Below, one piece after another: positions 101-8,684 of a stretch of DNA of 24,068 nt (within the stretch, counting starts at the first letter, position 1; each line of letters starts with the position of its first letter). The translations under genes were made by a program, and so were the position numbers. Location of the stretch: assembly GCA_040005235.1 (NCBI GenBank), contig JBDTZG010000074.1, positions 1-24,068 on the forward strand. Direction: 5' to 3'. The notes under the pieces were generated by a model that was not told the origin of the DNA, ran no database searches, and worked only from the letters and a program-made list of their open reading frames with translations. This DNA comes from Acidobacteriota bacterium. Lineage in GTDB: Bacteria; Acidobacteriota; Thermoanaerobaculia; Multivoradales; UBA5704.

Positions 101-287
101 GATAGCGGCTATCCGCGCTCGATAGCCGCTATCCTGGGCCGATAGCCGCTATCCTGGGCCGATAGCCGCTATACGTGACCGATAGCGGCTATCCGTGGCG
201 GCATAGCCGCTATGCACAGCCGATAGCGGCTATCCCCGACCGATAGCGGCTATCCGAGCCCGATAGCGGCTATCCGCGGCGACATAG
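101..287. repeat. Tandem array of 13-bp palindromes GATAGC(C/G)GCTATC with 7-8 nt variable spacers (left part: 9 full units plus start of unit 10)
   Basis: Units start at 101,121,141,161,181,202,222,242,262; unit 10 (CATAG at 283) is cut by the transposon. Period 20-21 bp. Confidence 0.95.
280..287 (+). repeat. Target site duplication, left copy (CGACATAG)
   Basis: Identical 8-mer at 5530-5537; each copy directly abuts a terminal inverted repeat. Confidence 0.92.
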
Positions 288-309
288 GGTAGTGGTAGCG
301 TTTCAATCC
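288..309 (+). repeat. Terminal inverted repeat downstream of transposase (GGTAGTGGTAGCGTTTCAATCC)
   Basis: 288-303 is the exact reverse complement of 5514-5529; similarity extends imperfectly through AATCC. Confidence 0.92.
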
Positions 310-1148
310 TTTGGATTTTCGAGCAAACCGACCAGGTCGGCGATCGACCAGCGGCGGGAGTCTACGCCCGCGGCTTGCACGGGAGTCTTCCCGCCGAGAC
401 TCGCGTGAGGACGGCAGAAGTTGTAGAAGAAAAAGTGAATCGCGACGTGCGCGGCGTGGTTCTCGACTTTCTTCGAAAAGGCGTTGGTCAGGCGCGTAAA
501 GCGACGGATCGACATCCGCATGGTGAGGTTCGAACGCTCGATGAACGAGGTCGAGATGTGCCGCTCGGCCGGATCGCCGACCACGGGCCGCTTCTCGCAT
601 CCCGTGCATTCCGCCGGGCTGTAGCGGGTTTCGGGGCCGGTCGGGGTGTTGGCGTAGCTCTTGACCAGCTGGGCGAAATCGACGTTACCGCCGAAGGCAT
701 CTTCAACCGCGATCGGGTACATGTTGTGGCCGTCCGTTGTGATCTGGGCGCGGCCCGAGAGACGGCTCGCGAGATCCTGCATCAGCTCGGTCGCGCATCC
801 GGCATCCCGCGAGCCCACCAAGAAAGACGGGACCAGCTTGGTGTCCGCGTCAATCGCGGCGAACGTCCAAACGTCGCCAAAGCCGAACGTGCCGCGCTTG
901 TCGGCGGGAACGTTCTTCGCCTTCGCGTAGCAGAAAGCCCAAATTTCGTCCACCTGGAGGCGCTCGCAATTGAGGTTCCGGAGTGTCTTGTCCTGGTAGC
1001 TGGCGCACGCGTCGCCGAGATCAACGAGCAGCCGGAGAATCGTGGTTTTCGCCACGCCGGTCATGCGAACGGTGGAATTGATCGAGTTGCCTTCGCACAG
1101 AGCGGCGACGACTGCGGTGCGCTTCGAGGACTTCAAGACGTTTGCCAT
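303..1148 (-). CDS. IS1-family DDE transposase (HTH + DDE in one ORF, 281 aa)
   Basis: N-terminal HTH (EGNSINSTVRMTGVAKTTILRLL); catalytic motifs QVDEIW, ITTDG, STSFIERSNLTMR; C-terminal RRFTRLTNAFSKK and YNFCRPH. Start moved from 1199 to ATG 1148 based on the promoter position. Confidence 0.92.
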   Translation of the reverse strand: MANVLKSSKRTAVVAALCEGNSINSTVRMTGVAKTTILRLLVDLGDACASYQDKTLRNLNCERLQVDEIWAFCYAKAKNVPADKRGTFGFGDVWTFAAIDADTKLVPSFLVGSRDAGCATELMQDLASRLSGRAQITTDGHNMYPIAVEDAFGGNVDFAQLVKSYANTPTGPETRYSPAECTGCEKRPVVGDPAERHISTSFIERSNLTMRMSIRRFTRLTNAFSKKVENHAAHVAIHFFFYNFCRPHASLGGKTPVQAAGVDSRRWSIADLVGLLENPKD

Positions 1149-1155
1149 ATGAAAC

Positions 1156-1184
1156 ATTGTACGTGACCGGTCTGGCAATGTCAA
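1156..1184 (-). promoter_or_regulatory. Sigma70-type promoter of the transposase, TTGACA-17 nt-TACAAT
   Basis: Minus-strand TTGACA at 1184-1179 and TACAAT at 1161-1156; ATG follows 7 nt later. Confidence 0.75.
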
Positions 1185-1208
1185 CACCTGGGTTGACATC
1201 GTGTCAAC
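1178..1208. promoter_or_regulatory. Overlapping inverted repeats (three TGTCAAC/GTTGACA half-sites), putative operator
   Basis: ATGTCAAC-6 nt-GTTGACAT (1178-1199) and GTTGACA-3 nt-TGTCAAC (1192-1208). Confidence 0.55.
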
Positions 1209-1337
1209 ATTCTTGGCGGACTGTTCGCGGACCCCGGGGCGTGGGTGCCGATACCAGGGTTCGCAAGGCGCGAACTAGGGTATTGACACCGAACCCAGAG
1301 TCGGCACAAGATGCGCTTGATTTAGAGATGGTCGAGT

Positions 1338-1521
1338 GGCGGTGCTCTTGAGTCTCAGGTGGGGACCAGGATCAAGAGCGACCGCCGGGGCCAGGGAAGG
1401 AAGGTGGACGCAAACCATGCAGTCACAATCACTAGCCGCCCCGTAGACGGGCGCAGGGGCCGGGAAACCGGTCCCTTTTGTGCCGCATGACTCACACCGA
1501 GGGGTAAAGGGTTACCTCTCG
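1338..1521 (+). ncRNA. Candidate structured RNA / long 5' leader
   Basis: Stems 1338-1351/1372-1386, 1416-1428/1478-1489, 1437-1443/1448-1453, 1456-1463/1468-1475 (GAAA loop) and 1498-1507/1512-1521; non-Watson-Crick pairs are G-U on the + strand. Confidence 0.5.
1455..1479 (+). terminator. Intrinsic terminator-like hairpin (possible attenuator)
   Basis: GGGGCCGG-GAAA-CCGGTCCC followed by TTTT. Confidence 0.5.
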
Positions 1522-1561
1522 ATCCGTTTTCATTCTAACGGTGTCCGCGGGAGGCGTCAAG

Positions 1562-2184: not shown

Positions 2185-2685
2185 CTACTTGGCGTAGTTT
2201 TTTACCGAAAATCGAAGCTCGGCGAGCATGGTAGCCGTATCAATGCATCGAATATCAAAGGCCCTGGCGATCGTTGGTATCTTGATCTTCGATTTATTCG
2301 ATTTTTCGTTTTCTTGTGTAACTACAATCCCTCCGTCTGCTATCCCGTGGGCAATCAGCCATCCGTCCGCGCCTGACAGAAATAGCCTTGCCTGCTGGGG
2401 CTTGTAATTCTCTTGCGAGTAGGCCGCTATCGCGCCGTAGATTTCTTGAACCTCCCTGGATTCGTTCTTGCACAGCCCGGTCGTCTTTCTCGCCTTGCAC
2501 CACGCCGCCAGTTCGTCCTTGAAGCCAACCTTGGTGATTTCGTCGTATGCAAGTCTAGGCATCTGAATTCTTGAGGTCGCGAGGTGCTCTTCGATAAACA
2601 TCCAGAACTGCGGAACCATATCCAGCCGAAGCACGCCTCGCGACGCGTGGATCAATACCCCTGCATCGATCCAGTAATTGGGCAT
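2185..2685 (-). CDS. DUF4411 family PIN-like protein (putative RNase toxin)
   Basis: YWIDAGVLI N-terminus, YDEI, ADGWLIAHG, VVTQE and KIKIPTIA motifs; starts 4 nt after the peptidase stop codon. Confidence 0.85.
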   Translation of the reverse strand: MPNYWIDAGVLIHASRGVLRLDMVPQFWMFIEEHLATSRIQMPRLAYDEITKVGFKDELAAWCKARKTTGLCKNESREVQEIYGAIAAYSQENYKPQQARLFLSGADGWLIAHGIADGGIVVTQENEKSNKSKIKIPTIARAFDIRCIDTATMLAELRFSVKNYAK

Positions 2686-2689
2686 AGGG

Positions 2690-3850
2690 CTATCTCGACA
2701 TCTCCGCGAACTTCGCCAGCGTTGGCACGCTCAGGGAGAGTAGCTGGGCGCCGTGTGTCAGCAGCAGCGCTTTTCGATTCACTTCGCCCAGAACGGCGTT
2801 GGTGAAGCGAGCCCCCATTCGAGCCGTCACGTTTCGATAATAGTCGCCGCCGGACGATTTCTTGCCGTCGGAAATCTTCTTTAGTTCCGCGCTCCGCAAT
2901 TGATGAAACTCGATGTCAGATAACAAGTCGAGATCATGCGCCCTCCGAAGTACAACGAGGGTGCTCACCCAAAACCGCCTAGCTAAAGCACTGATCCTAG
3001 TTGCGCCGCGCTCGGAAGCCTCCCACCCATTCAAGAACTCACCTTGCGGAACCAGGGCTGTGGCCGCGACACGATTACAAAATGCTTCGACTGGATTGGC
3101 GCTCGGCTTCAGGGGGTCGGGGTTGGTGATTGCGCTCTGGTTAATCCATAGGTGTGCTAGTTCGTGGATAAGGGTAAAAATTTGAGCAGCCTTATAATCG
3201 GCGCTGTTGACGAACACTACCGGCGCGTAGGGGTCGGTAACGGCAAAGCCCTGCACTTCCTTGGGGGATATCTTGTATTGAGTGGTATTGCCTACGATGC
3301 TGCTTCTCATAACCAGAATGCCGCCGGTCTCTGCGTGACGGGTGATTGTGCTCAGGTATTCGCTCCAGCTTCCTACACCACTACGGAGATCCGCCGTAAG
3401 TCCCAGAGTGTTGCGAATGCTGGTCGCAACATCGGTTACTTTATCTTTCGATGTGAAGCTACCTATAAACTTTAGCTTTGCCAGGCGAGGGGAAGATTCG
3501 CGCAGGTGATCTCTGTACCAGTCCTGCCGAACCAAAACCTCATTCAAGAGCTGGAGGAATTCAACGCTCGGCGGATGATACCCGTGGCCAAGCGTGCGAA
3601 AATCAGGGATCGGTAAATCTTCTGCGGGCACCTCAGGAAGGAAGAGATACCCAAAGGGTAAATGCAGAGCCTTTGCGAGATCCTGGGCTTTCGCAAAGGG
3701 TGGCGGAATTCCTGCTTCCCAGCTTGCGATTTGCTCTGGATCTACCTTGACCTTAGAGGCAACGAGGGTCTTCGACTGCCCGCTAGCCTTGATGGCCCAG
3801 GTGAGAATCTCGGGGTTGATGAACGCAACGTCGGCGCTAGTTTTAGGCAT
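2690..3850 (-). CDS. Xre HTH + ImmA/IrrE (peptidase M78, COG2856) metallopeptidase, 386 aa
   Basis: INPEILTWA...IASWEAG...LAKALHLPFGYLFL HTH, PDFRT linker, FTLIHELAHLW HExxH, EAFCNRVAATALVP; AGGAGG SD supports ATG 3850 rather than 3946. Confidence 0.9.
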   Translation of the reverse strand: MPKTSADVAFINPEILTWAIKASGQSKTLVASKVKVDPEQIASWEAGIPPPFAKAQDLAKALHLPFGYLFLPEVPAEDLPIPDFRTLGHGYHPPSVEFLQLLNEVLVRQDWYRDHLRESSPRLAKLKFIGSFTSKDKVTDVATSIRNTLGLTADLRSGVGSWSEYLSTITRHAETGGILVMRSSIVGNTTQYKISPKEVQGFAVTDPYAPVVFVNSADYKAAQIFTLIHELAHLWINQSAITNPDPLKPSANPVEAFCNRVAATALVPQGEFLNGWEASERGATRISALARRFWVSTLVVLRRAHDLDLLSDIEFHQLRSAELKKISDGKKSSGGDYYRNVTARMGARFTNAVLGEVNRKALLLTHGAQLLSLSVPTLAKFAEMSR

Positions 3851-3964
3851 TCGACCTCCTCGTGATACAATTCGAGTAGGTCGTTCGCGCCGAGTGGGTC
3901 CAGCACTGGGAGCAACGGCAGGTGCTACGCGTTTTGTGTCGGCCATAGAACCGACCGCTTTTCC

Positions 3965-4243
3965 TTAAGCCTTCCTTCTACCTGCCCAGCGAGCCGCCGC
4001 CGCCTTGATAGCCGATTCGTGGCGCTCTAGCTGTGTAAGCTTTGCCGCCCTAGCTTTGCCGCCCTTTAGACCGCCCTTGCGGCCGAGCGCGACCGCGGCG
4101 GGGTCTTTTGCCTTGCCTGCTACCTGCTGAGGCGTTGACGTTCCTGTAAGCTCCGCAACGATTGCAAACGCGAGCGTGTTAGAGTCCCGCGGCCGTTTTG
4201 GGAGCGGGTCGGGGTGCTCGGGCTTCCGTGAGTGGTCAGGCAT
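3965..4243 (-). CDS. Small basic KGG-motif protein (often labelled histone H1-like), 92 aa
   Basis: KRPRDSNTLAFAIV and KDPAAVALGRKGGLKGGKARAAKLT...KAAAARW; extended -10 TGnTACCCT lies 6 nt before the ATG. Confidence 0.8.
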   Translation of the reverse strand: MPDHSRKPEHPDPLPKRPRDSNTLAFAIVAELTGTSTPQQVAGKAKDPAAVALGRKGGLKGGKARAAKLTQLERHESAIKAAAARWAGRRKA

Positions 4244-4290: not shown

Positions 4291-4737
4291 CTACACGCTC
4301 TCTTTCTCGTGACGTTGAACGATTCCCGCGGCGGATGCTTCATCGCGGGCGTAGGCGGGGGCCAGCTCGGCGGCAAGGGCTCGACACTGGCGCGCCGTCT
4401 TCAAGGTGGCGATCACCTTCCCGGTTGGCAGGTAGACCAGCGTCCGGGGCTCGATCCGCGCGGGACCCGCCGCGCTGCCCTGGTAGTAGCCGAAGGGAAC
4501 CGAGACCTTGCCCCAAACGTCGGGAAGCTCTCGGCCCCCGAGCAGGATGACGCGGAAGAACCCGCGCGACCAGTCGAGCGGCATCGGCAGACCGCCCCGA
4601 ACGATCGCGCGGAGCTGGGCATCCGCGGCATGGGCGAGCCAATGGCCGACGCTCGGGAAGGATTCGGCGCTCGCCACCCGCTTCCAGGCGATCGACTGCG
4701 GCATGGTGGCCCGAACGGTGAACGTCGCTACCTTCAT
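4291..4737 (-). CDS. Hypothetical protein with N-terminal ribbon-helix-helix-like segment, 148 aa
   Basis: ATG 4737 overlaps the upstream TGA (ATGA coupling); strand ATFTVRA followed by two amphipathic helices. Confidence 0.6.
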   Translation of the reverse strand: MKVATFTVRATMPQSIAWKRVASAESFPSVGHWLAHAADAQLRAIVRGGLPMPLDWSRGFFRVILLGGRELPDVWGKVSVPFGYYQGSAAGPARIEPRTLVYLPTGKVIATLKTARQCRALAAELAPAYARDEASAAGIVQRHEKESV

Positions 4738-4970
4738 GCGTCCGCTGCTTTGATCCATGGCACCAACGCCTTCGGGCGTTCGGTCGTCTTCACGAAGTAC
4801 AGGTTCACGTAGAGGGTTCCCAAGGCGTGAAGCCACGCCCCCACGTCCGCCCGGTGCTGGTGTGCTGCCAGGGCTTCGAATGCGCGTTGTTCGTCCGCGC
4901 TGGGGACCGTGACCGGGTAACACTTCGGCCCGGTCGGCACGATCGGCGTTTCCTTCGGCGGTCGCCCCAT
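4734..4970 (-). CDS. Small protein with GRPPK (AT-hook-like) start and RHH-like segment, 78 aa
   Basis: Starts 3 nt after the upstream stop and is coupled to the downstream gene; MGRPPK, YPVTV strand, two helices. Confidence 0.55.
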   Translation of the reverse strand: MGRPPKETPIVPTGPKCYPVTVPSADEQRAFEALAAHQHRADVGAWLHALGTLYVNLYFVKTTERPKALVPWIKAADA

Positions 4971-4973
4971 GGC

Positions 4974-5351
4974 CTAGGCCCCGACCGTCCGTTCGATCTG
5001 TTCGGCGATCCGCGCGGCTTCCGGAGCCTGAGACTCGGCAAGTTGGGAGAGCTTGACGCCTTTTCGATCCAGGCTCGCCTGTAGGTACTCCCGGCCGATC
5101 GCTTCGAGCTGGCCTTCAAGGAACCGGAAGTCCCCGGCAATGGCGAGCAACTCGCCTTCGGAGTCCGGCCCTTGGTCGCGATGCCACTCCCGACCGCATT
5201 CGAGCGCGCAGCCGTAGAGCAGGCGTCCGAGACGTTCCAAGGCGGTAGCGTCTTCGGGCTTGAACAGGCGGAGGAACGTGCCGCGAAACACGGCGAATTC
5301 CTCCCATTCGGCAGAGTGAAACGGCGGGATAGACTGCGGGCGGTCGGACAT
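4974..5351 (-). CDS. Hypothetical helical protein, 125 aa
   Basis: SD AAGGGAG upstream of ATG 5351; first gene of a tightly packed three-gene run. Confidence 0.65.
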   Translation of the reverse strand: MSDRPQSIPPFHSAEWEEFAVFRGTFLRLFKPEDATALERLGRLLYGCALECGREWHRDQGPDSEGELLAIAGDFRFLEGQLEAIGREYLQASLDRKGVKLSQLAESQAPEAARIAEQIERTVGA

Positions 5352-5415
5352 GGGGTTTCTCCCTTGTTCGGCTAGGTCCGTCGGGGTGTGCTGAGCACTC
5401 CGGCGGGCCGCTTCT
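5342..5415 (+). ncRNA. Candidate cis-antisense sRNA covering the RBS and start codon of the 125-aa gene
   Basis: -10-like TAGACT at 5330-5335; 14-bp stem 5375-5388/5396-5409 that is fully paired (3 G-U) only on the + strand. Ends are approximate. Confidence 0.45.
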
Positions 5416-5506
5416 GTAGGCATCGGAGATGGATTTCTCGCGCGCCCGGGAGGAAGTTACACCCGAAAACACGCCCTTTAACTCCATTCAATTACTTGGA
5501 TTTAGG

Positions 5507-5529
5507 GGATTTCAAACGCTACCACTACC
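5507..5529 (-). repeat. Terminal inverted repeat, cargo side (GGTAGTGGTAGCGTTTGAAATCC on minus strand)
   Basis: Reverse complement match to 288-309. Confidence 0.92.
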
Positions 5530-5537
5530 CGACATAG
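5530..5537 (+). repeat. Target site duplication, right copy (CGACATAG)
   Basis: Identical to 280-287. Confidence 0.92.
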
Positions 5538-5565
5538 CCGCTATCCACGGCCGATAGCCGCTATA
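5533..5565. repeat. Right part of the palindrome array (units 10 and 11)
   Basis: CATAGCCGCTATC (5533-5545), 7-nt spacer, GATAGCCGCTATA (5553-5565). Confidence 0.9.
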
Positions 5566-5711
5566 CGGAGGCGCAACTCAGCCCTCCACGACCGAGACCC
5601 GCTCTCCGGCGCCGATTGCCTTTCTCACGCACCGACAGCGGCGATCCGAGGCCGAGAAGCGGCTTTCCGCGCGGGATAGCGTGAGCGACGGCCGATACCG
5701 CTCCTACGCTT

Positions 5712-6368
5712 CTACGAGCCGTTCCACAGCTCCAGCGTGTCGCGCTGTTCGCGCAGCAGCACTCGCTCGCCTCCCGAGATCAGATAGCCGAGATCGCGGT
5801 AGCGGGCGAGCAGGCGCCGGCCGGTCGGGCTCGACGCCAGCACGACCCGGTGCGGCGCGCGCTCCCGGATGCCCTCTTCCACCCACAGGTTGTCGTCGTT
5901 CCAGACGAACTTCCGGCCGGCGACCTCGCTGGTCGTCGGCGGCTGAAACAGGAATCCTGGGTTGGTGACGCTCACCACCTCGTGCCGGGCCTTGAGCGCG
6001 AGCGCCCGGTCTCGGGCAACAGAGTATTCGCGCACTACTCCCACCGTCATCAGCATCAAGGCCGCCGTGGCGAGCGTCGCGAGACCGCCCCAACCGCTTG
6101 CGAGACGGGAAAAGAGCGAACGGCGGGGCGCGACCTTGGCCGCCTCCACGAGGACGTCCCAGCGCACCCGTTGCGCCAGGTCGGCGGGCGGCGCGGAACG
6201 CCGCACCCGGGAAAGGAGGTCAACCGTGCCGCGCAGGCGGTCCAACTGCGCCCGGCAGTCGGTACAGGTTTCGAGATGCAAGTCGAGCCGCCGCCGCTCG
6301 GGCTGCGACAGCTCGCGATCGAGATACGCCGAGGCCAGCTCGAACGTGAGATGAAAGGGACGATTCAT
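5712..6368 (-). CDS. Zinc-finger (zf-HC2) membrane anti-sigma factor, 218 aa
   Basis: SAYLDRELS...HLETCTDC (HxxxCxxC), one TM helix; ATG 6368 overlaps the sigma stop codon. Confidence 0.88.
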   Translation of the reverse strand: MNRPFHLTFELASAYLDRELSQPERRRLDLHLETCTDCRAQLDRLRGTVDLLSRVRRSAPPADLAQRVRWDVLVEAAKVAPRRSLFSRLASGWGGLATLATAALMLMTVGVVREYSVARDRALALKARHEVVSVTNPGFLFQPPTTSEVAGRKFVWNDDNLWVEEGIRERAPHRVVLASSPTGRRLLARYRDLGYLISGGERVLLREQRDTLELWNGS

Positions 6369-7043: not shown

Positions 7044-8684
7044 CTACGGCTTCCGGAGCCGACGGATCAGGCCGCTCATCTGCGGGACGCCGAAGAGGAG
7101 CGCTACGACCAGGTACATCGTGCCGAACGTGCCCGCCGCAAGCCCGGCGAGGACAATCGAGCCGAGGCGGCCCGCTGGGGCGAGGTGAGCAAACGTCGGG
7201 CGCAGCGCAAAGGCCGACGCTCCGGCGATCGACGCCGAGCTCCAGAGGCGGACTTGGAGCGACCCCGAGAGCGCCACCCGGCCGATCCGCGCGCCGAGCT
7301 TTCGACGCAGCAGCAGGAGCTCGATCCACGCGGCGATCCCCGCCGAAGCGGTCAAACCCACGGCGCCGAGCGCGAGTGCCCCGCCGCTCACCGCCGGGAT
7401 CGGCAACCCCACCTTGACGATCGCCGCCACGAACAGCGGCCGGAGCGGAAAGGCGAACAGCACGCCGAGCACGGCGGTCAGCGTCACGCGGATCACCGCG
7501 ATCCGGAACGGCGTCCGCGGATCGCCGAGAGCATAGAAGGTCGAGGAATATAGCCGCCCCAGGCAGGCGGCGAGCAAACCGACCGTCGAGCCGGCGAGCA
7601 CGTACGCCACGAACTGCGAATCGGCCACGGTGAATTTGCCCGACTGAAACAGGGCGGTGATCAATAGATCGCCGAGCAGCAGGAAGGCGATCACCGTCGG
7701 CACGACGAAGAACGCCACCCGGCCCAGCCCGATTTCCAACTTCTCCCGGAGCGTTCGGGCGATCTCCTCTGCGGTTCCGGCGCTTCCCGCCACCCCTGAC
7801 ATGTTCGGCAGCTCGGCCGCCGCGATCGACATTCCGAACAGGCTGATCGGCAGCAGGTAGAGCGTCTGGGCAAAGCTCAACCCCGCCACCGCCGCGGTGC
7901 CCAAAAAGCTTGCGAGCATGCTGTCCACGTACGCCGATAGCTGCACCACGCCGCGCCCGGCAGCCACCGGCCCGAGGTTTTTGAACACGGTGCGCACGGG
8001 GGCCAAGCTGAGGTTAAGCGCGAAGCGGATCTCGCGATCGTGCCGGAACACGAACGGCAGCTGAAGCAGCAGCTGAAGCAGCGCCCCGACCACCATGCCC
8101 CAAGCGAGCAGCACGGCCAGCTCTCCGCCGCTCCGCCGGCCGCCGAAAATCAACAGGGTGGCGATCATCGCCGCGTTCCATACCACCGGGGCGACGTAGG
8201 AGAGGAAGAACTTCCGGTGGCTATTGAGGATGCCCAAGCACCAGGCGGAGAGCACCAGTAGCCCTGTGCCGGGAAACAAAATCCGCACGATGTCGATCGT
8301 CAAAGCACGAGCCGACCCTTCGAACCCCGGCGCCACCAGATCGACCATCCAAGGGGTCGCGAGCGCCCCAAGGGTCGAGAGCACCCCGACCAACAGAGCG
8401 AGCAAAGCCCCCACCACCCCGGCCACCCGGCCCGCCAGCTCCGCCTTCCCCTCCGCCTGAAGGCGGGCGTAGACCGGGATGAACGAAGCCGAAAGCACCC
8501 CTTCGCCGAGGAGATTCTGAAGCAGGTTGGGAATCCGCAGAGCCGCTTTAAAGGCCCCCGAAGCCGGCGACGTGCCGAGAAAATGGGCGTACACCTGCTC
8601 GCGCACCAGCCCGGCGATCCGCGACAGCAGAATGCCGGAAGCGACGAGCAGGGAATGGAAACCTGTGGATCGGGTGCGGGTCAC
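7044..8684 (-). CDS. murJ: Lipid II flippase MurJ (MviN)
   Basis: SRIAGLVRE, RIPNLLQNLLGEGVLSASFIPVY, LYLLPISLFG, FYALGDPRTP; the ORF-track extension to 9014 is non-homologous, so GTG 8684 is preferred. Confidence 0.93.
   Translation of the reverse strand: MTRTRSTGFHSLLVASGILLSRIAGLVREQVYAHFLGTSPASGAFKAALRIPNLLQNLLGEGVLSASFIPVYARLQAEGKAELAGRVAGVVGALLALLVGVLSTLGALATPWMVDLVAPGFEGSARALTIDIVRILFPGTGLLVLSAWCLGILNSHRKFFLSYVAPVVWNAAMIATLLIFGGRRSGGELAVLLAWGMVVGALLQLLLQLPFVFRHDREIRFALNLSLAPVRTVFKNLGPVAAGRGVVQLSAYVDSMLASFLGTAAVAGLSFAQTLYLLPISLFGMSIAAAELPNMSGVAGSAGTAEEIARTLREKLEIGLGRVAFFVVPTVIAFLLLGDLLITALFQSGKFTVADSQFVAYVLAGSTVGLLAACLGRLYSSTFYALGDPRTPFRIAVIRVTLTAVLGVLFAFPLRPLFVAAIVKVGLPIPAVSGGALALGAVGLTASAGIAAWIELLLLRRKLGARIGRVALSGSLQVRLWSSASIAGASAFALRPTFAHLAPAGRLGSIVLAGLAAGTFGTMYLVVALLFGVPQMSGLIRRLRKP

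Follow-up and report, generated by a model that had tools for sequence, protein, structure and literature searches.

A covarying structured region upstream of a HARE-HTH-like gene in IS1-like cargo transposons: a candidate leader with an opposing promoter

Introduction

What does the densely folded non-coding DNA between the transposase gene and the first cargo gene of an Acidobacteriota transposon do? The question is raised by a contig of 24,068 nucleotides (JBDTZG010000074.1; the window, i.e. the whole stretch analysed), in which this DNA lies between a divergent IS1-family transposase gene and a gene for a 174-aa HARE-HTH-like protein. The original prediction, made from the letters alone, placed a candidate element-encoded RNA at 1251-1530 and offered a small RNA, an RNA antitoxin, a ribonucleoprotein (RNP) partner or a regulatory leader as its role. 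We found that hairpins of this region covary among homologous regions upstream of relatives of the 174-aa gene. With a probability of roughly 0.55, we read window ~1283-1561 as DNA that controls the HARE-HTH-like gene in cis: a structured sense leader holding a short open reading frame (mini-ORF), opposed by a putative antisense promoter.

Results and discussion

The structured region folds better than shuffled sequence

The comparison with dinucleotide shuffles that the original prediction had proposed came out in favor of structure. We found a predicted minimum free energy (MFE) of -127.7 kcal/mol for the + strand of 1251-1530, relative to -100.4 ± 5.4 kcal/mol for 200 shuffles (z -5.08; 1/200 as good), and -111.9 kcal/mol for the - strand (z -3.81; 0/200 as good). 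The elements discussed here, including the Shine-Dalgarno (SD) sites, are as follows.

1251-1283, no strand assigned: palindrome, candidate operator at the DNA level, abutting the sense -35 box (sequence and fold)
1283-1312, + strand: putative sense promoter, -35 TTGACA at 1283-1288, weak -10 CACAAG/CAAGAT at ~1305-1312 (consensus match, score 9)
1338-1386, no strand assigned: P1, long hairpin of 14 bp plus apical stems, 1338-1351/1372-1386 (covariation)
1393-1407, + strand: purine-rich SD-like tract AGGGAAGGAAGGTGG, in relatives GGAGGUG(A/G)U (SD plus start-codon test)
1416-1489, + strand: P2, closing helix around P3 and P4, 1416-1420/1485-1489 and 1424-1426/1480-1482 (window sequence)
1417-1446, + strand: mini-ORF MQSQSLAAP*, ATG at 1417, TAG at 1446, stop in the P3 loop (sequence)
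1437-1453, + strand: P3, 5-bp hairpin with a 7-nt loop, 1437-1441/1449-1453 (consensus CGCCC-CUNNNAA-GGGCG)
1456-1475, + strand: P4, 8-bp GC hairpin with a GAAA loop, 1456-1463/1468-1475 (G1459-U1472 wobble, covariation)
1498-1521, + strand: extra 10-bp hairpin, terminator-like with a weak U tail (terminator scan)
1524-1541, + strand: P5, small hairpin CCGTT/AACGG with an AT-rich loop, the same bases as the antisense -10 box (sequence)
1532-1560, - strand: putative antisense promoter, -35 TTGACG at 1560-1555, 17-nt spacer, -10 TAGAAT at 1537-1532 (consensus match 10/12)
1549-1554, + strand: SD sequence GGGAGG of the HARE-HTH-like gene, 7 nt before its ATG (sequence)
1562-2086, + strand: 174-aa gene, with an N-terminal helix, a disordered linker and a C-terminal winged helix (protein alignment A1, AlphaFold2)

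All of the hairpins first proposed are present, at their given coordinates or a few bases off. The 14-bp stem with one bulge (G1380) is P1; the inner stem proposed at 1352-1356/1362-1366 can be drawn, although the MFE structure prefers 1353-1355/1369-1371 plus 1358-1360/1365-1367. The multibranch domain was also recovered, with its closing helix at 1416-1426/1480-1489, a few bases off the proposed 1416-1428/1478-1489, and its two hairpins, one with a GAAA loop, are P3 and P4. The 10-bp hairpin at 1498-1521 is also among the hits of the terminator scan, which returned 2 sites relative to 0.9 ± 1.0 in shuffles and so is not significant; by eye, this hairpin was not seen in the closest relatives (L079-L084). 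The TTGACA at 1283-1288 with its weak -10 is as described. The hairpin reported at 1251-1283 exists as a palindrome, but its position 5' of the sense promoter probably leaves it outside the RNA. Palindromes around the -35 box were also seen by eye in L079, L081 and L084. The proposed extent of 1251-1530 holds these elements but is too short: the functional unit runs on to ~1561 and takes in the 1524-1541 hairpin, the antisense boxes and the SD of the gene.

The structured region travels with the HARE-HTH-like gene

By DNA search, the structured stretch is single-copy in its own genome and was not found beyond the window itself in the genomes of 60 relatives. Among 77 genome loci encoding transposase relatives (867,213 bases), none shares window 1185-1561. 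In L002, whose transposase is 97% identical, the similarity spans window 239-1184 and then ends. A covariance model, R1, built on 7 loci (alignment A3; P1, P3 and P4), had 0 matches at E ≤ 0.1 in the same 77 loci, only 4 of which hold a relative of the 174-aa gene.

Loci collected through the 174-aa protein gave another picture. We kept 80 of 244 metagenome stretches encoding a relative, and 76 upstream regions could be used; with the window added, 62 were non-identical. Nearly all have one common architecture upstream of the gene, though blastn aligns only a ~40-nt block: a TTGACA/TATAAT-like promoter, a long hairpin, a purine-rich GGAGGUG tract, AUG or GUG, P3, P4, an AT-rich motif, an SD sequence and the start codon. 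In relatives, P4 is a GC hairpin, often with a GAAA loop, and the AT-rich motif before the SD of the gene is TTTATAGCA-like. By eye, L107, L134, L138 and L158 are without this architecture, and they were excluded from later counts.

Searches of 157 loci with 1185-1561 by blastn and nhmmer matched only the ~40-nt P3/P4 block. Hence, homology was traced by architecture and covariance models. A global MAFFT alignment of 58 upstream regions was too gappy, and RNAalifold returned no structure from it. The structured region is linked to the HARE-HTH-like gene, not to the transposase. The description of an RNA encoded by the transposon thus stands in that the region lies inside a cargo transposon; it did not anticipate that the region travels with the downstream gene rather than with the transposase, as seen from L002 and the R1 null result.

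P1, P3 and P4 covary among upstream regions

Among 66 sources holding the gene family, R1 gave 33 matches on the + strand at E ≤ 0.01 and 5 additional, weaker matches on the - strand, confined to the palindromic P1. Alignment A5 was formed from the 25 matches at E ≤ 1e-4 (28 sources given); in it, standard pairs fill 93.8% of 612 cells, relative to 71.5 ± 1.1% in shuffles. Two-sided changes occur in 23/27 pairs and in 119 cells (32 ± 4 in shuffles). When the partner was moved by 1-3 columns, at most 53.6% of cells were paired. The covariation that the original prediction had asked to test for is seen in these alignments for P1, P3 and P4.

A second model, R2, built on A5 and run on 75 sources, matched 35 times at E ≤ 0.01, with 34 of the matches on the + strand. 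Two of its matches, L165 (E 3e-8) and L164 (E 3e-4), are IMG/VR viral contigs that were found through the protein alone and lie outside the training set; in L165, the entire architecture is visible by eye. The resulting alignment A6 (35 rows, including one - strand row and one partial row) is 93.8% paired relative to 71.1% in shuffles. By helix, P1 has compensatory changes at all 14 modelled pairs with ~91% of cells paired; the columns of P3 are 93-95% paired, with 3 pairs invariant in A5 (2 in A6) and 2 with double changes; P4 is 98% paired, with double changes in 7/8 pairs. Scanning 150 other genomes of the phylum with R1 gave only 4 weak matches, none near the gene or a transposase, which are for that reason probably false.

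Of the roles first offered, the regulatory leader fits these results, as the covarying structure is directly upstream of homologues of the HARE-HTH-like gene; the RNA antitoxin and RNP partner found no support.

The window and several loci show P2 clearly (GAGAUAGC/GCUAUCUC, CGAUGUUA/UAACAUCG, GGUGUUG/CAACACC). Duplex energies were uninformative (-18.4 kcal/mol for cognate flanks relative to -17.3 kcal/mol for non-cognate flanks), and P2 is tentative as a family-wide helix. Directly 3' of P4 (10 nt after it), about half of the modelled loci have a CAAC(A/G)C motif, which in some loci pairs with the GGUGUUG of the mini-ORF SD region.

A Shine-Dalgarno tract and mini-ORF precede P3

We scored an SD-like core followed after 3-11 nt by ATG, GTG or TTG, with the first base of the start codon 11-20 nt before P3. 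This arrangement is present in 21/25 loci relative to 4.06 ± 1.76 in shuffled linkers, and 0/1000 shuffles reach 21. The mini-ORFs of relatives lie at the same place, have 2-10 codons in most loci, and mostly stop before or inside P3; several end Pro-stop, with the stop codon within the P3 loop. Codon 2 is AGA, AGG or AUA in 12/22 loci with a called mini-ORF. In the window, the mini-ORF stop at 1446 is 116 nt 5' of the gene ATG (1562). When positioned at the start or stop codon of the mini-ORF, a ribosome would sit over the 5' strand of P3. The short ORFs that read across P3/P4 on the reverse strand were dropped, as they are expected for GC-rich sequence.

Promoter-like sites face each other across the structured region

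A consensus scan of 1100-2200 found 2 promoter-like sites, both on the - strand, relative to 0.2 ± 0.4 in shuffles. One is the putative antisense promoter, which separates the 174-aa gene from the structured region and is directed leftward, across the latter and towards the transposase. In relatives, the reverse complement of the AT-rich motif is TGnTATAAA, an extended -10, and the typical form of the site is TTGNCN-17-TGnTATAAA. The TTGNCN hexamer lies 16-18 nt upstream of TGnTATAAA and overlaps both the SD of the gene and a conserved CAA after it. Scores of at least 9.5 were reached on the - strand in 28/58 loci but on the + strand in 2/58; the mean scores are 8.97 and 7.51, respectively, relative to 7.49 in shuffles. 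We therefore read the AT-rich motif, from its sequence, as a promoter on the opposite strand.

The best + strand score in the window is 9 (consensus match), at the sense promoter. In relatives, this site scores at least 9.5 on the + strand in 26/50 loci relative to 8/50 on the - strand at the same place. Hence, the structured ~200 bp lies between predicted face-to-face promoters.

P1 and P4 differ in strand preference

Using symmetrically chosen windows in 54 loci, we found P4 is more stable on the + strand in 43/54 (p 1.2e-6), while P1 is more stable on the - strand in 33/54 (p 0.05); the P1 of the window itself is better on the + strand. Mismatches in 33 aligned rows follow the same division: P4 has 19 G-U relative to 2 A-C cells (binomial p 2e-4), and P1 has 9 G-U relative to 23 A-C cells (p 0.02; a smaller set agrees), an asymmetry that was seen despite the + strand model behind the alignment and in cells that are not independent. 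The claim that the wobbles of the window all favor the + strand is right for G1459-U1472 but too simple for the whole, since the hairpins differ in strand preference. On this sequence evidence, P4 appears selected on the + strand, and P1 leans to the - strand. Opposite preferences are a prediction of convergent transcription because the RNA of each strand would keep one hairpin under selection.

A proposed leader opposed by an antisense promoter

How might these elements work together? In the reading we prefer, the sense promoter (-35 at 1283) would produce a ~240-nt structured leader holding, in order, P1, a very strong SD with the mini-ORF start, P3, a GNRA-capped P4 and the AT-rich segment before the SD of the gene. 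A ribosome on the mini-ORF would cover the loop of P3 along with its 5' strand, and ribosome loading would remodel P2/P3. The AT-rich segment and the bases around the SD of the gene would form a sigma-70 promoter on the opposite strand (extended -10 in relatives), firing back over P4, P3, the mini-ORF and P1 towards the transposase, so that transcription would be convergent. The antisense transcript would be fully complementary to the leader. It would reduce or gate HARE-HTH expression in two ways: transcriptional interference, and RNA-RNA pairing that blocks the mini-ORF SD or leads to cleavage of the duplex. We infer the firing of both promoters, the translation of the mini-ORF and the direction of the regulatory effect from sequence. 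Possibly, the region also controls the divergent IS1-like transposase.

Several observations weigh against this reading. The alignments are model-fitted and the sequences related, so shuffle counts and binomial p-values overstate independence. The promoter calls are consensus matches, and the sense -10 of the window is weak. Folded as a whole, the region shows no strand preference (+ better in 30 loci, - in 26, p 0.38). The contiguous-helix permutation test of P2 across the family gave p 0.05, which is weak support. In predicted ensembles, the SD of the gene has a mean unpaired probability of 0.47 (12/45 below 0.3, 12/45 above 0.7); it is inconsistently occluded, and therefore no simple expression platform is visible. 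At least 5 T within 10 nt after P4 are present in 5/33 loci, the window included (UUUUGUG), and canonical U tracts follow the reverse complement of P1 in 13/33. Nor would the transposase depend on the antisense promoter, given the strong promoter-like site close to its own start. Finally, a P5-type stem (at least 4 bp around the AT-rich loop) can be drawn in 30/58 relatives, so the AT-rich motif could be an RNA element rather than a promoter.

That last point belongs to the best surviving alternative, which we regard as unlikely: the region acts only as sense RNA, a + strand cis attenuator or riboregulator that depends on the mini-ORF in the style of erm and cat leaders, and the AT-rich motif is an RNA element such as the P5 loop or a ribosome standby site. 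Occupancy of the mini-ORF would switch P2/P3 against alternatives, e.g. a fold in which the 3' side of P3 pairs with the pyrimidine tract that follows P4, and pairings of this side with a downstream C-rich tract are visible in several loci. The P5 stems, the fixed distance of SD and start codon from P3, the selection of P4 on the + strand and the frequent AGA, AGG or AUA at codon 2 (12/22) all agree with this. An RNA-only motif cannot explain why 28/58 loci have a -35-like hexamer on the - strand, exactly 16-18 nt from the AT-rich box, when 2/58 have one on the + strand, nor does the conserved CAA after the SD of the gene have an RNA-level explanation. The lean of P1 to the - strand and the inconsistent occlusion of the SD also argue against it.

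Discrete small RNAs are quite unlikely. Here, a + strand RNA would run from ~1320 to a terminator at P4 or at 1498-1521, and/or a - strand RNA from ~1525 to the reverse complement of P1, and would work in trans or together with the HARE-HTH-like protein or transposase in an RNP. In the window, P4 is followed by UUUUGUG and the 1498-1521 hairpin is terminator-like; the hairpin favored on each strand is the 3'-distal one of the transcript of that strand; and the winged helix also matched, with weak scores, SelB with SECIS RNA, an example of RNA binding. However, U tracts were found in a minority of loci, and we rejected the terminator reading of P4 and of the reverse complement of P1 on that ground. 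The motif was also never met away from the gene: the 867 kb of transposase loci held 0 matches, and the 4 weak phylum matches are without gene and transposase. No complementarity to the transposon ends was seen.

We think it improbable that P1 and the other inverted repeats work as DNA, i.e. that a dimeric protein, either the transposase or the HARE-HTH-like protein, binds them and that the need for matching half-sites makes the arms covary. P1 forms equally on both strands with no clear single-strand preference, palindromes also surround the sense -35 box, and the neighboring gene encodes a winged-helix protein. Unlike operators, however, P1 has stems of 14-20 bp with variable apical parts and bulges; wobble types prevail among the mismatches, with P1 and P4 biased in opposite directions, as expected of RNA and not of protein-DNA contacts; and P4 combines GNRA-type loops with a strong + strand bias. 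That the region is GC-rich intergenic DNA folding by chance is very improbable: GC-rich sequence generally folds well, and the - strand reaches z -3.8 too, but architecture and covariation are kept across loci that share almost no sequence, and the model results, with 0 matches in the 867 kb of control loci, contradict it.

As a long shot, the leader may be a translation-state sensor of the transposon that reads ribosome or rare-tRNA availability, e.g. during phage attack or tRNA-cleaving defense. The reasons are that the SD of the mini-ORF is over-strong (complementary to the 16S 3' end) and that, in about half of the members, AGA, AGG or AUA at codon 2 stands directly before the stop, as in lambda bar minigenes. 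If so, the convergent switch would flip and the HARE-HTH regulator, the transposase and the defense-type cargo would be coupled to host stress.

The HARE-HTH-like protein with its convergent-promoter leader is a testable candidate for self-regulation of single-ORF IS1-like elements. It places a structured RNA region with clear covariation beside transposases whose transposons bear defense-type cargo (DUF4411/ImmA, DUF3800, NYN, restriction enzymes). For those who search for RNA motifs, it is also a useful reminder that what looks like a conserved motif of the RNA can be a promoter of the other strand.

Comparison with known RNA families and regulatory systems

No known RNA family was recognized in the original prediction, and Rfam agrees. 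With Rfam 15, the window had 0 matches at the gathering threshold and nothing usable at E ≤ 10. The best sub-threshold match was weak and partial, to the dauA motif (RF04311) over P3/P4 (1438-1509); at 22.9 bits relative to a gathering threshold of 45 (E 0.27), the region is not a member. In 20 related loci, Rfam found 3 tRNAs and 1 DUF3800-IX RNA elsewhere, none over the motif.

A guide role, already called unsupported, remains so, as complementarity to the transposon ends does not exceed chance: the longest word shared by the RNA region and the ends (1-310, 5491-5720) is 8 nt, and 200 shuffles mostly give 8-10 nt. We rejected the guide RNA classes (TnpB/IscB omega RNA, IS110 bridge RNA) since the neighboring enzyme is an IS1-family DDE transposase (IS1595-type in one subgroup) and the ends are not complementary. 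A riboswitch is not suggested either, as the downstream gene encodes a winged-helix protein in a transposon and so points to no metabolite.

The RNA-OUT/RNA-IN system of IS10/Tn10 has opposed promoters within a transposon, overlapping transcripts and a stable stem-loop RNA on one side; its overlap is short and covers the transposase ribosome-binding site. The region here is similar in its opposed promoters (predicted motifs), its stable stem-loop and its proposed regulation of an element-encoded gene. It differs in that the overlap would be ~200 nt over the leader and mini-ORF of the HARE-HTH-like gene, and there is no similarity of sequence or structure. The overlap would therefore not cover the transposase ribosome-binding site as in IS10; the transposase start (1146), with its own promoter-like site, is ~380 nt further along.

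In CopA/CopT-tap of plasmid R1 and Inc RNA-repY of IncB/IncI plasmids, a structured leader holds a short leader ORF with its own SD, and the antisense RNA gene is inside the leader. The structured leader, the short SD-bearing ORF and the upstream-facing antisense promoter predicted here are alike. Their leader ORF, however, reaches the start of the main gene or runs past it, which couples translation, whereas the mini-ORF of the window stops 116 nt before the ATG; moreover, the setting is a transposon rather than a replicon, and the protein is unrelated.

Convergent-promoter switches are known from prgQ/prgX of pCF10, with Anti-Q, and from pR/pL of coliphage 186. With face-to-face promoters ~200 bp apart, interference and antisense pairing could give a two-state switch here as well, though there is no homology and the promoters here are predicted. 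The leader-peptide attenuators of ermC, cat and tnaC and the two-codon minigenes of lambda bar resemble the mini-ORF in that it is very short, has a strong SD and is closely followed by a hairpin; AUG-AGA-stop or AUG-AUA-... is the reading in many members, and several end Pro-stop. Unlike these, there is no conserved peptide, the MQSQSLAAP* of the window is without rare codons, and the SD of the main gene has no consistent sequestering hairpin. By this comparison, the module resembles known antisense and leader-peptide controls yet fails, where tested, the defining features of each.

In the parts of the literature searched, on IS1-family passenger genes, HARE-HTH in transposons, transporter IS/IS1595 and DUF3800 RNA motifs, no description of the module or of its structured region was found.

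The predicted winged helix of the 174-aa protein resembles an RNA polymerase delta domain

A homology search with the 174-aa protein returned 31 proteins, counting the query's own entry, and their alignment (A1) has an N-terminal IDYxxVLxDL helix and a C-terminal WGLAEWY motif in common. Judging from this alignment, the ORF product is a real conserved protein. It matched no Pfam family at E ≤ 0.01. The AlphaFold2 model (mean pLDDT 77.5) has a long helix, a disordered linker and a winged helix, and the top six Foldseek matches in the PDB are all RpoE/delta N-terminal domains of RNA polymerase (E 1.8e-3 to 5.8e-2, probability 1.00, identity 18-23%). The delta N-terminal domain is the founding example of HARE-HTH.

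The module is a recurrent accessory of cargo transposons

Two features lie on the other side of the structured region.

303-1146, - strand: IS1-family DDE transposase gene (Pfam DDE_Tnp_IS1)
1156-1184, - strand: promoter-like site of the transposase, TTGACA-17-TACAAT, 11/12 (consensus scan)

The ORF at 303-1199 (-) matches Pfam DDE_Tnp_IS1 at 30.7 bits, above the cut-off of 24.1. Each of the 8000 homologues scored reached E ≤ 0.001; the best 120 are mostly 279-299 aa, and source records of the homologues say 'IS1 family transposase'. The ORF is open up to 1199, but since homologue lengths of 279-284 aa fit 1146 or 1155, the start is probably one of these. The promoter-like site is common to the window and L002 as far as window 1184. 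Its -10 box lies 7-10 nt 5' of the ATG at 1146, a position which suggests that the transposase mRNA is near-leaderless and that the protein, like many homologues, has 281 aa. In the gap separating the palindrome from the transposase start, TGTCAAC/GTTGACA occurs 3 times in alternating orientation (1178-1208); the copies may serve as a repeated operator or as -35 boxes that overlap.

A stretch of ~5.2 kb is bounded by a 31-nt inverted repeat (276-306/5511-5541) together with arrays built on a 20-bp repeat that holds the palindrome GATAGCSGCTATC. The arrays, at 82-283 and 5534-5675, are outside the inverted repeat; the left array has 9 good copies, and the right array has 2 along with several decayed ones. 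Since L002 also has ~3 copies of the unit at the corresponding place, the repeats seem to be part of the transposon end rather than of the target, and from their sequence they seem to be candidate multiple binding sites. The cargo includes a pair at 2185-3946 (-), DUF4411 (PIN-like, 166 aa) and an HTH/M78 peptidase (ImmA/IrrE-like, 418 aa); for the ORFs at 3965-4243, 4291-4923 and 4974-5423, all on the - strand, no Pfam family matched.

Among 51 non-identical loci with at least 600 nt upstream of the gene, 34 have an IS1-like transposase relative divergently upstream (median gap 317 nt), 2 have such a relative elsewhere and 15 have none. In the subgroup of L116, an IS1595-type DDE transposase takes the upstream position instead. 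The module recurs in soil and rhizosphere metagenomes beside IS1-like transposases, and the cargo downstream varies among loci: DUF3800, NYN, a BglII-type restriction enzyme with MT-A70, Mrr, TumE and PIN. The HARE-HTH-like gene with its leader is an optional but recurrent accessory module of these cargo transposons.

DUF3800 is the first cargo gene in L082, L100 and L112, and in L148 a DUF3800-IX RNA (RF02968, 66.8 bits) at 3470-3539 (-) directly follows the DUF3800 cargo gene. The DUF3800-associated RNA motifs of Weinberg et al. 2017 (PMC5737381), themselves unexplained, may thus be located in such transposons. In L158, at 100-315, the homologue of the 174-aa gene is preceded by about a dozen 11-bp TTGCTATG-type repeats (iteron-like), not by the RNA motif, and ThiC is downstream. 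L030 has 3 transposase matches spaced 2555 bases apart (2154-2851, 4709-5406, 7264-7961), which looks like a tandem triplication of an IS1-like element. In L116, L108 and L089, tRNA genes lie 0.6-1.9 kb from the module and may be neighbors of the insertion site.

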